Shown: positions 796-57,730 of the stretch, one piece after another
Position numbering within the stretch: the stretch's first letter is position 1
Layout: each line of letters opens with the position of its first letter
Origin: Escherichia coli
Lineage (GTDB): Bacteria > Pseudomonadota > Gammaproteobacteria > Enterobacterales > Enterobacteriaceae
Strand: one strand, 5' to 3'
DNA length: 64,000 bases
Assembly (NCBI RefSeq): GCF_036507355.1
Contig: NZ_AP027877.1
Translations under genes and position numbers: made by a program
The notes under the pieces: generated by a model
What the model was told of the DNA's origin: nothing
Seen by the model: only the letters and a program-made list of their open reading frames with translations
The model's database searches: none

Positions 796-3114
<2,319 letters not shown>

Positions 3115-3427
3115 GCTTACCTTCCCTGAACGAGCTAACATAAATGCGCCCTTTCTAGCACAGCGAAAAAATGTAAATCCTGATAGCAATATGATTGAAA
3201 ATTAATAACTTTTCGTTAGGCAGTTTTGGGTGTGAGTTGCAAGAGGGGAGACTACTGAATAACTCAAGTTTTATAATCGAGGGGAAAATGGTGATGGCGT
3301 TCATAGCAAAACGCCCTCAACCATAAAGGTCGAGGGCGCTTAAGATGTTAAAAACCCGCTATCCGTTAAAAAACAATGTTCAACTAAGGTCAGTGACATT
3401 GCACTAAAAAAGCGAATTTTTAGAATT

Positions 3428-3503
3428 TGGCTCCTCTGACTGGACTCGAACCAGTGACATACGGATTAACAGTCCGCCGTTCTACCGACTGAACTACAGA
3501 GGA
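3428..3503 (-). tRNA. asnT: tRNA-Asn (GTT)
   Basis: 76-nt match to E. coli tRNA-Asn on reverse strand, ends CCA. Confidence 0.95.
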
Positions 3504-3603
3504 ATCGTGTGAACGGGGCGCATATTACTTAGCGGTACCTTGTCTGTCAACACTAAATTTCATAAGTCATTTCAATTGGTTAATTAATCTGCAACGTTGT
3601 TAA

Positions 3604-4401
3604 TTAATGAACATTCGTCGCCGAAAACGAGTCTGTATCATTAGCGTGATGCAGTCTCTGCAAAGGATCTTGTTGATAAAATTGGCAGAAACGTTGCCAC
3701 AATGAAGGGAAACGAGGAGCAAAAAGTTCTGGGGCGCTAAAGAAATATTCAGAAAGTACGGCAAAACATTCAGCAGGATCACTGGCAGCATAAGCATCAA
3801 TGCTCGCCGCATTCTCGCCAACCAATTCGATTTCTTCCTGAATGTTGTTCATTGCAGCATGAAGATCGTGTTCCCAGCCAGCAACCTCACGCAACGGAAT
3901 AAAGGGAACTCCGCTGGCGCGATCGCCGTTACGGGTGTCCAGCTTATGAGCGACTTCATGAATAATCAGGTTAAAACCAGAAGCATCAAAAGAATCTTGT
4001 ATATCCAACCAGTTCAAAACGATAGGCCCTTGCTGCCAGCTCTGACCTGACTGAACAATACGTTGGTTATGCACCAGACCGATATCGTCTTCCCATTCAT
4101 CATCGACCACAAATGGCGCAGGATAAATTAAGACTTCATGAAAACCATACAGCCATTCCAGTCCTAACTCCAGAACGGGTAGGCAAAATAGAAGTGCTAT
4201 CCGGCAGCTTCTTAATGAATCCAGTTCAAAGCCCTGTAAAGGAACAAGCCGCTTTTGCTGTAAAAAACGTTCGGCAAGAGTGACTAATTTGCTTTGTTCC
4301 TGTTCCGTCAGACACGTTAAAAGGGGGATCGATAGTGCTTCCTGCCAGGGAAGGGCAGTTTGATGTGCTGATTCTTGTACTTTCCAGGGCCACTTAATCA
4401 T
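3604..4401 (-). CDS. mtfA: Mlc titration factor A (zinc-dependent peptidase)
   Basis: 265-aa product starting MIKWPWK with HEVAH motif; ATG at 4399-4401. Confidence 0.93.
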
Positions 4402-4494: not shown

Positions 4495-4584
4495 GGAGAG
4501 ATGCCGGAGCGGCTGAACGGACCGGTCTCGAAAACCGGAGTAGGGGCAACTCTACCGGGGGTTCAAATCCCCCTCTCTCCGCCA
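4495..4584 (+). tRNA. serU: tRNA-Ser (CGA)
   Basis: 90-nt match GGAGAGATGCCGGAGCGG...CTCTCCGCCA, long variable arm. Confidence 0.95.
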
Positions 4585-12808: not shown

Positions 12809-13996
12809 TTAGAACTGGTAGACTAAGCCCACAGCAACGATATCATCGGTAGCGATGCCGTTTTCTTTGTAGAAGTCGTCGTCGTTGTCCAGCAGGTTGA
12901 TTTTGTAATCAACATAAGTGGACATGTTTTTGTTGAAGTAGTAGGTCATACCAATATCAACATATTTAACCAGATCTTTGTTGGTGTAATGATGATTACC
13001 CTGGCTGTCGAAGTTATCACTATTTACACCGCCTAAATCCTTACCTTTAGATTGCAGGTAAGCGATGGACGGGCGCAGACCGAAGTCGAACTGATACTGA
13101 GCAACAACTTCAAAGTTTTGGGTTTTGTTAGCGATGGCATCAGCATCACCGTAACCAGTCATGTTACGGGTTTCAGCATACATAGCTGCTAAGTAAACGT
13201 TATTAGCGTCGTATTTAGCACCAACGGTCCATGCTTCTGCTGTTTCACCGCCAGCAGTTGCATCGAAGCGATCTCCATAACGAGTGTTATGAGTACCTTT
13301 GTGAACCTGATTGTCGGTACGGTCAGAGTTAGAGTAAGCAGCGCCCAGACTTAAACCAAAGTCAAAGTCATAGGAAGTGGACATACCGTAACCGTCGCCG
13401 TTCTCTTTAGCAAGTTTACGTCCATTACCGTTACCTGAACCTTCTTGATCAAATAATCCGCTTTTCTCGTTGTTACCCTGATACTGGAGTGCAAAGTTCA
13501 GACCATCAACTTGACCAAAGAAACCATTGTTACGATAGGTTGCTACGCTGTTAGCACGACCGTTCATGAAGTTGTCAGCGCCAGCATAGGTATCTCCACC
13601 AAATTCTGGCAGCATATCGGTCCATGCTTCTACGTCATATACGACACCGTAGTTACGACCATAGTCGAAAGTACCATTCTGACCAAAGCCGAAACCTGCA
13701 AATGCCAGACGCGTTGCGGTATTACCCTTGTCGCTTTCAGGACCGTTTGCGCCAATGTTAAATTCCCACTGACCATAACCAGTGAACTGGTCAGCGATCT
13801 GGGTTTCACCTTTGAAACCGATACGGGCATATGACATGTCGCCATCACTGCCAGAGTCATCAGAGAAGTAGTGCAGACCCGCTACTTTTCCGTACAAATC
13901 CAGTTTATTGCCATCTTTATTATAGACTTCAGCCGCATTTGCTGCGCCAGCAACTAATAACGCCGGGACCAGCATTGCCAGAACTTTTCTTTTCAT
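12809..13996 (-). CDS. yedS: OmpC/OmpF-family general porin, apparently intact
   Basis: Signal peptide [21 protein letters not shown], ~395 aa, C-terminal ...GLVYQF. Confidence 0.88.
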
Positions 13997-14307
13997 TATG
14001 TATTCCCTTGTGATTATAATCTTCATGAATATATCAATAAGTGCCGTTATCCAAAAAAAAGCACATTTGGATACTATTCTATGAAGTTCATTTTATTTTA
14101 AAGATTACATGTAACAAATGTATTTAAAAGACTTCAAAATGTTTCTAATCTATTTAATATGATTCATAATTATGAATTCTAAATATAAATATTCATGAAA
14201 ATTATAAGTATATATCAATATGTTATGAGTTGAGCGGAAAGATAGGGAGTATCAATGATTGTTACGCCAAACACCTGGTGTGATCACGCGCACATTAATG
14301 AAGGCAT

Positions 14308-14398
14308 AAAAAAAAGCCGGCATCATGCCGGCCCAAAAAATATAAACAAGACGATAAAAGGCTAATAACGGAAGCATCATGACACAGAATAATAAAAA
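14308..14398 (-). ncRNA. rseX: Candidate small RNA at the RseX locus (yedS-yedR intergenic)
   Basis: Minus-strand intrinsic terminator (hairpin 14316-14332, U8 from the A-run at 14308-14315); locus placement from memory of K-12, sequence identity not verified. Confidence 0.35.
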
Positions 14399-14562
14399 GG
14401 TATAATTGTAATCAGTGCTAATATATTGATTGAATGAATTAATAAAGCCGATATCAAAGATAAATAAAATCGCTCAAAACGATTTTTCCTGTATTCACTG
14501 CCGTTGCGCAAAAATTATCTATTTGTTCAAAAAATGAGTGAGTCTTGACTGGCTCATTCAAT

Positions 14563-14928
14563 GTGGAAAAATGTGACTTTTATCACATAATAGTACTAAG
14601 TCTGAATTTTCCGGGTTATCTCAAAATGGAATACGGTTCGACAAAGATGGAAGAGAGACTCTCTCGCAGCCCTGGCGGCAAACTGGCTTTGTGGGCTTTC
14701 TATACATGGTGTGGCTATTTCGTCTGAGCAATGGCGCGTTACATCTGGGTGATGAGCCGGATCCCCGATGCCCCCGTGTCGGGATTTGAAAGCGATTTAG
14801 GCTCTACCGCGGGAAAGTGGTTAGGGGCACTGGTCGGATTTTTATTTATGGCTCTGGTCGGGGCATTGTTAGGCAGCATTGCCTGGTACACCCGACCTCG
14901 TCCCGCACGTAGCAGACGCTATGAATAA
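14563..14928 (+). pseudogene. yedR: Inner membrane protein YedR interrupted by in-frame TGA
   Basis: ORFs 14545-14727 and 14731-14928 are in one frame separated by TGA at 14725-14727; GTG at 14563 to 14928 gives 121 codons. Confidence 0.6.
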
Positions 14929-22734: not shown

Positions 22735-22821
22735 AACACATCAGATTTCCTGGTGTAACGAATTTTTTAAGTGCTTCTTGCTTAAGCAAGTTTCATCCCG
22801 ACCCCCTCAGGGTCGGGATTT
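22735..22821 (+). ncRNA. dsrA: DsrA small regulatory RNA
   Basis: 87 nt AACACATCAGATTTCCTGGTG...GGGTCGGGATTT; three stem-loops, 3' terminator hairpin 22795-22819 plus U-run; between yedP and yodD as in K-12. Confidence 0.9.
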
Positions 22822-57427: not shown

Positions 57428-57503
<76 letters not shown>

Positions 57504-57557
57504 GTTTAAAAGACATCGGCCTCAAGCGGATGTCTGGCTGAAAGGCCTGAAGAATTT

Positions 57558-57631
57558 GGCGCGTTAACAAAGCGGTTATGTAGCGGATTGCAAATCCGTC
57601 TAGTCCGGTTCGACTCCGGAACGCGCCTCCA
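57558..57631 (+). tRNA. cysT: tRNA-Cys (GCA)
   Basis: 74 nt GGCGCGTTAACAAAGCGG...GCGCCTCCA. Confidence 0.95.
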
Positions 57632-57643
57632 ATTTCTTCCCGA

Positions 57644-57730
57644 GCCCGGATGGTGGAATCGGTAGACACAAGGGATTTAAAATCCCTCGGCGTTCGCGCT
57701 GTGCGGGTTCAAGTCCCGCTCCGGGTACCA
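57644..57730 (+). tRNA. leuZ: tRNA-Leu (TAA)
   Basis: 87 nt GCCCGGATGGTGGAATCGG...GGGTACCA. Confidence 0.95.

Follow-up and report, generated by a model that had tools for sequence, protein, structure and literature searches.

The question raised by the DNA between yedS and drpB (formerly yedR) in this Escherichia coli is whether a GC-rich hairpin with a U-run on the minus strand marks the end of a small RNA gene and, if so, which RNA is made, what it may act on and whether it is still under selection. The window referred to below is the whole stretch that was analysed, 64,000 nucleotides of contig NZ_AP027877.1.

Identification of the RNA gene

Based on an Rfam 15 scan of the whole window, the minus strand at 14309..14398 matches the family RF01401, 'rseX Hfq binding RNA', with 97.7 bits (E 3.2e-12) against a gathering score of 50 bits. 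The match covers positions 1-94 of the 94 in the covariance model and is not truncated. Aligned with E. coli K-12 MG1655, the minus strand is the same as the ncRNA gene rseX (b4603, NC_000913 2033649..2033739) at 91 of 91 positions. The covariance-model E-value and this identity raise the feature above random expectation. Comparison of the window's open reading frames with the K-12 feature table gives the gene order hchA, yedS, rseX, drpB (yedR), yedJ, dcm, vsr, which is the K-12 order in reverse orientation; rseX is co-oriented with yedS and divergent from drpB. In the MG1655 record, rseX lies between drpB (b1963, formerly yedR) and a yedS pseudogene, and the rseX ncRNA, with no CDS, is what is annotated there. 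The locus map yedS-rseX-drpB is also given in PMC7648144.

The original prediction had placed the sRNA RseX between yedR and yedS and had proposed a search with the Rfam model as the check. This placement is borne out by the score, the K-12 identity and the synteny, and the search, now run, returned a full-length match well over the gathering score. Its extent, 14308-14400, overlapped the gene, with the edge misplaced by 2 nt relative to the annotated gene (14308..14398). We consider it highly probable that 14308..14398 on the minus strand is rseX, encoding a 91-nt, Hfq-dependent, trans-acting base-pairing sRNA that would act by the route proposed below; no finding speaks against this identity. 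The gene is already known: it is the K-12 allele of a porin-regulating sRNA and an ordinary feature, and its identification has little significance beyond correct annotation.

The elements of the locus are listed here, with nucleotide n of the RNA corresponding to window position 14399 - n.

14428..14433, minus strand: putative poor -35 element, TCAATC here and TTAATC in K-12, 17-nt spacer; placed by its spacing
14405..14410, minus strand: -10 hexamer TACAAT, -12 to -7 from the 5' end; read from the sequence, same in K-12
14308..14398, minus strand: rseX, primary transcript of the sRNA RseX, 91 nt, 5' end 14398 and 3' end 14308; Rfam match and K-12 identity
14386..14398, minus strand: U/A-rich 5' end, nt 1-13, of which nt 6, 7, 8 and 9 vary among eight E. 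coli alleles
14361..14385, minus strand: proposed stem-loop 1, nt 14-38, seven weak pairs, loop nt 24-29; Rfam structure line
14350..14370, minus strand: invariant core CGUUAUUAGCCUUUUAUCGUC, nt 29-49, no variable position in eight E. coli alleles or seven species-level sequences
14335..14340, minus strand: U6 tract, nt 59-64, directly 5' of the terminator; read from the sequence, conserved in all relatives
14314..14334, minus strand: Rho-independent terminator hairpin, nt 65-85; terminator scan, minimum free energy (MFE) and centroid folds
14308..14315, minus strand: U8 tail, nt 84-91, the 3' end of the RNA; sequence, terminator scan and fold

Terminator and fold

The sequence GCCGGCATCATGCCGGC lies at 14316-14332 and is flanked by A8 at 14308-14315 on the plus strand, which is the U8 that follows the hairpin on the minus strand. 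The hairpin and U8 described originally were thus found again by reading the sequence, by the terminator scan and in the centroid fold. It was also correct that no protein gene ends at the hairpin, the start of yedS being at 13996, 312 nt downstream. The hairpin has nine pairs, six of them G-C and two G-U at the base, and a loop of three, UGA, at 14323..14325.

Within 13900-14800, the stem at 14334..14314 with its T-run was the sole minus-strand site in the terminator scan. The scan pattern is loose, with an average of 0.5 sites in shuffles of the region, and is weak evidence by itself. The hairpin found here, however, far exceeds the scan threshold, and it is the only element of the centroid fold of 14308..14398 on the minus strand (-14.6 kcal/mol). 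In pair counts from a seven-species alignment, the stem shows one compensatory change, from G-C to A-U at its base in Citrobacter amalonaticus. The fold of the whole RNA has no extra stability over shuffles (z = -1.33), as is common among AU-rich sRNAs that leave their body open for pairing and have the terminator as their only firm structure.

The pairs of the proposed stem-loop 1 can form in the window sequence according to the Rfam match, and neither the MFE nor the centroid fold reproduced them. Among the seven species, where nearly all pairs are invariant, the pair counts gave no compensatory change in stem 1 and one pair broken in C. amalonaticus; three of the eight E. coli alleles carry an uncompensated G21C in the stem.

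RseX contains the usual Hfq sequence module, consisting of the U6 tract, the terminator hairpin and the U8 tail. As judged from sequence, the U6 tract is likely part of this module, a role known in general from Hfq-dependent sRNAs. Hfq dependence of the identical K-12 RseX is reported in PMC8313858 and PMC11979758.

Promoter and probable H-NS silencing

The possible -10 element placed about 90 nt upstream on the same strand in the original prediction proved to be TACAAT at 14410..14405, about 95 nt upstream of the U-run and 7-12 nt from the 5' end. Its TAnnAT positions are retained in all Escherichia relatives in the alignment. Compared with TTGACA, the putative -35 has 2 of 6 matches in the window, or 2-3 of 6 when the K-12 hexamer TTAATC is counted. 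Upstream of RseX the K-12 sequence is matched up to -33, and the first mismatch, C/T at 14432 (-34), falls within this putative -35 and is a common polymorphism among the eight E. coli alleles. In the consensus promoter scan, the rseX promoter went unlisted owing to this poor -35.

For K-12, PMC8313858 cites a sigma-70 consensus together with 5' RACE for the rseX promoter and start, and the 91-nt size. The same paper reports a peak of H-NS occupancy at -42 to -32, and the putative -35 falls inside this peak. By its account, wild-type K-12 cells contain no detectable RseX in any growth phase, and removal of H-NS, which StpA backs up, makes the RNA appear. The yedS-drpB intergenic region has 29.7% G+C compared with 48.9% for the whole window, which fits H-NS silencing.

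A second sigma-70-like site lies on the plus strand at 14379..14406 (ATGACA, 16 nt, TATAAT; 11 of 12 consensus matches) and is directed toward drpB. Its -35 is inside rseX (nt 15-20), its -10 shares 2 nt with the rseX -10, and its TATAAT is retained in most Escherichia relatives in the alignment. The site may act as a divergent promoter in competition with that of rseX, or it could have arisen by chance in AT-rich DNA; the promoter scan found 4 sites against 3.8 expected.

Distribution and conservation

A 90-nt query detected rseX in 4878 of the 5426 complete E. coli genomes; the identity is at least 99% in 1622 of them. Since about 10% of the complete genomes are without it, rseX is dispensable. 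An earlier study ranked it among the variable sRNAs, with losses in certain lineages of E. coli and Shigella (PMC3318445). One such loss can be seen in EM20-18-50 (NZ_CP063467.1 685072-693145), where, at 3080..3945 of the locus, IS1B stands beside a truncated hchA directly upstream of drpB. Both yedS and rseX are absent there, together with part of hchA, so that the pair has been lost together in an IS1-associated deletion.

Six further loci were found in species-representative genomes with a degenerate pattern derived from the conserved part of rseX: in Escherichia albertii, E. whittamii, two further Escherichia species, E. coli E69 and C. amalonaticus. All six score over the gathering score on RF01401 (70.9 to 95.2 bits). 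In C. amalonaticus, rseX is flanked by yedJ and drpB and, at its other end, by a gene for an OmpC-like porin. The aligned relatives show no variation in nt 29-49 (the core), the U-runs or the terminator stem; they vary in the loop of stem 1 and at the 5' end.

Because the search pattern forced part of the invariance among the relatives, six E. coli alleles chosen by BLAST were added. These were spread over 90-97% identity of the 591-nt intergenic region and, aligned with the window and K-12, make up the eight alleles used throughout. RseX nt 28-83 contain one variable position and the core none, and the flanks of rseX have 16-27 variable positions per 100 nt. Within the RNA, the variable positions are nt 6-9, 21, 24-27 and 65, and the U tail ranges in length from U6 to U8. 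That core and terminator stay invariant amid such variable flanks speaks for purifying selection acting on the RNA as such. Conservation is at the level of sequence, as expected for a seed region.

The region around rseX is unusually polymorphic. For 14030..14620 (591 nt), the best full-length match among the 5426 complete E. coli genomes is 98.3%, though rseX itself is 100% identical to K-12.

Predicted targets and mode of action

According to PMC8313858, which cites Douchin et al. 2006, RseX, a primary transcript of 91 nt, depends on Hfq for its repression of ompA and ompC. It was discovered through its ability, in multicopy, to suppress the lethal effect of deleting rseP (Douchin et al. 2006, cited by PMC8313858 and PMC7648144). 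We scanned RseX nt 1-64 for local duplexes (14 x 16 nt) against positions -40 to +20 of K-12 ompA and ompC, the source strain's own ompA and ompC lying outside the window. The best duplex for ompA joins RseX 37-50 to -22..-7 at -17.0 kcal/mol, with none of 100 dinucleotide shuffles as strong. For ompC, RseX 30-43 pairs with -14..-1 at -16.1 kcal/mol, a strength found in 1 of 100 dinucleotide shuffles. Both duplexes span the Shine-Dalgarno sequence and fall in the invariant core. When full-length RseX was instead set against the whole leaders, the end-to-end duplexes were implausible, being matched by 146 of 500 shuffles for ompA and 97 of 500 for ompC.

Based on these modelled duplexes, CGUUAUUAGCCUUUUAUCGUC (nt 29-49) is the predicted seed for the ribosome-binding regions of ompA and ompC, and its complementarity would fit occlusion of the ribosome-binding site. 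The ompA pairing site is described in PMC8313858 as not mapped experimentally. The predicted pairing of the core with ompA -22..-7 and ompC -14..-1 offers a concrete design for compensatory mutations, a test that, by the account of that paper, ompA still awaits. The translation initiation region of yedS was also tried as an RseX target and rejected, as it reached only -8.4 kcal/mol, a value attained by 80 of 100 shuffles.

Other targets may involve other parts of the RNA. PMC8313858 reports that fimB and ihfB are repressed as well, the predictions for both being constrained to an accessible 'region 1' of RseX, which would probably lie at the 5' end. The 3' part of RseX represses fepA; the terminator loop is required, Hfq and RNase E are needed, and there is no sign of direct pairing (PMC11979758).

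Taken together, rseX would be transcribed from its own weak sigma-70 promoter, with the -10 TACAAT at 14410..14405, and the transcript would end at the GC-rich hairpin and U8. The invariant core (nt 29-49), presumed single-stranded, would pair with the Shine-Dalgarno regions of the ompA and ompC mRNAs, and this pairing, with Hfq, would block translation and lower the mRNA level, leading to less of these abundant outer-membrane proteins. The fimB and ihfB mRNAs would be further targets, and fepA would be affected via the terminator loop with Hfq and RNase E, apparently without direct pairing. Lying in AT-rich DNA and silenced by H-NS, with StpA as back-up, rseX would have no detectable expression in wild-type laboratory cultures. 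The present analysis itself shows the identity of the gene, its anatomy, synteny and pattern of conservation, and its complementarity to the targets. Published work on the identical K-12 RNA supplies the dependence on Hfq, the repression of ompA and ompC, the silencing by H-NS and the effect of the terminator loop, and we infer that all of this should hold in the source strain.

Alternative explanations

A quite different view would be that rseX is a silent relic here, with a weak, H-NS-covered promoter that never usefully fires and a hairpin that only insulates yedS. The lack of native expression in wild-type K-12 in any growth phase (PMC8313858) would agree with this, as would the poor -35, which carries one further mismatch in the window, and the loss of rseX in several lineages (PMC3318445) and by IS1 deletion in EM20-18-50. 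However, the core and terminator have stayed invariant between flanks with 16-27 variable positions per 100 nt, the RNA and its synteny are conserved as far as C. amalonaticus, and RseX is expressed without H-NS and, once made, acts on ompA, fimB, ihfB and fepA (PMC8313858; PMC11979758). We therefore hold a relic to be improbable. It is still less probable that the RNA serves as a 5' leader or attenuator of yedS, with conditional read-through from the rseX promoter to the porin gene 312 nt downstream. The shared orientation of the two genes and their adjacency in C. amalonaticus would suit such an arrangement, but the nine-pair terminator with U8 has no alternative anti-terminator fold, and PMC8313858 describes a discrete product of about 91 nt. 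The 312-nt spacer, with 15.8 variable positions per 100 nt, also behaves as ordinary intergenic DNA, and K-12 has kept rseX despite its yedS pseudogene.

A coding function is the least credible of these explanations and can hardly be entertained. A 42-codon open reading frame does exist at 14252..14380 on the minus strand, and it is annotated as a hypothetical protein (WP_000979496.1) in NZ_CP107720.1. Yet it begins within RseX and would need read-through of a strong terminator; it meets a stop after 18 codons in 4 of the 6 relatives and loses its ATG in C. amalonaticus, and changes in U-run length among the E. coli alleles shift its frame. Having no Pfam family match and being unconserved in the relatives, it was rejected as a gene.

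Relationship to yedS and other neighbours

The locus agrees with K-12 rseX in all 91 nt of the gene, its terminator included, in the promoter-proximal sequence as far as -33 and in its location between yedS and drpB. The differences are the C/T at -34, a yedS that is intact here and a pseudogene in K-12, and a stop codon in drpB. The window's yedS (12809..13996, minus strand) encodes an intact porin of 395 residues that matches the Pfam family Porin_1 over profile positions 1-337 of 337 (E 6.6e-141); in K-12 MG1655 the gene is annotated as a pseudogene.

That rseX stands beside a porin gene has drawn comment before, by comparison with micF, which adjoins ompC, and micC, which adjoins ompN. A speculative extension, to which we give a low probability, is that rseX and yedS form an AT-rich, H-NS-silenced 'porin-swap' cassette in which, on de-silencing, YedS would be made and RseX would clear the resident OmpC and OmpA. 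Consistent with this, the two genes remain neighbours as far as C. amalonaticus and were lost together in the IS1 deletion, the G+C content is 29.7%, and RseX is complementary to the ribosome-binding site of ompC and not to that of the OmpC-like yedS. Given its intact yedS, as opposed to the K-12 pseudogene, the window could hold a working version. If the proposal were true, only the functional coupling would be new; the idea has been partly anticipated.

On the other side of rseX, the cell-division gene drpB (yedR; 14626..14928, plus strand) has a premature stop at 14725-14727, where TGG (Trp34) in K-12 has become TGA through a G to A change at 14727. Over 121 nt around this stop, none of the 5426 complete E. 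coli genomes is identical, and the best matches reach 120 of 121; drpB is annotated as intact in the best 15 matches listed. The gene is probably inactivated in the source strain.

Comparison with other sRNAs

Like RseX, the Hfq-dependent RNAs MicA, MicC, MicF, RybB and OmrA/B are short and trans-acting, end in a terminator with a U tail and repress outer-membrane protein mRNAs by pairing at or near their ribosome-binding sites, and yet they have no sequence relationship with it. Targets overlap in the case of ompA with MicA and of ompC with MicC and RybB (PMC1804206). Unlike these RNAs, RseX is placed outside the sigma-E and OmpR regulons and is silenced by H-NS, according to PMC8313858, and it occurs only in Escherichia/Shigella and some Citrobacter. 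In Salmonella, no signal for RseX was seen (PMC1804206).

Another likeness concerns fepA, which SdsR+44 and ArrS repress via the terminator loop with Hfq and RNase E, as does K-12 RseX+52 (PMC11979758). The window's RseX has the same terminator loop as K-12 RseX+52, UGA at 14323..14325. SdsR and ArrS are otherwise unrelated to RseX, and no direct pairing with fepA was found in that study (PMC11979758).

Annotation of rseX and other features of the window

Of the RefSeq E. coli records opened, none of the eight annotated with PGAP lists rseX, and only the K-12 MG1655 reference record does so. In NZ_CP107720.1, the 42-residue 'hypothetical protein' WP_000979496.1 is annotated over rseX at 1990839..1990967. 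Such a pattern suggests that rseX is systematically missed in annotation, with one spurious gene called in its place.

A second sRNA gene, dsrA, lies 8 kb from rseX at 22735..22821 on the plus strand and is full length (Rfam RF00014, 102.5 bits, E 1.5e-18). Its product, DsrA, down-regulates hns, and H-NS is the silencer of rseX (PMC8313858). The window scan also found five tRNA genes, at 3431..3503 (minus strand), at 4495..4581 (plus strand) and in a cluster of three at 57428..57727 (plus strand).
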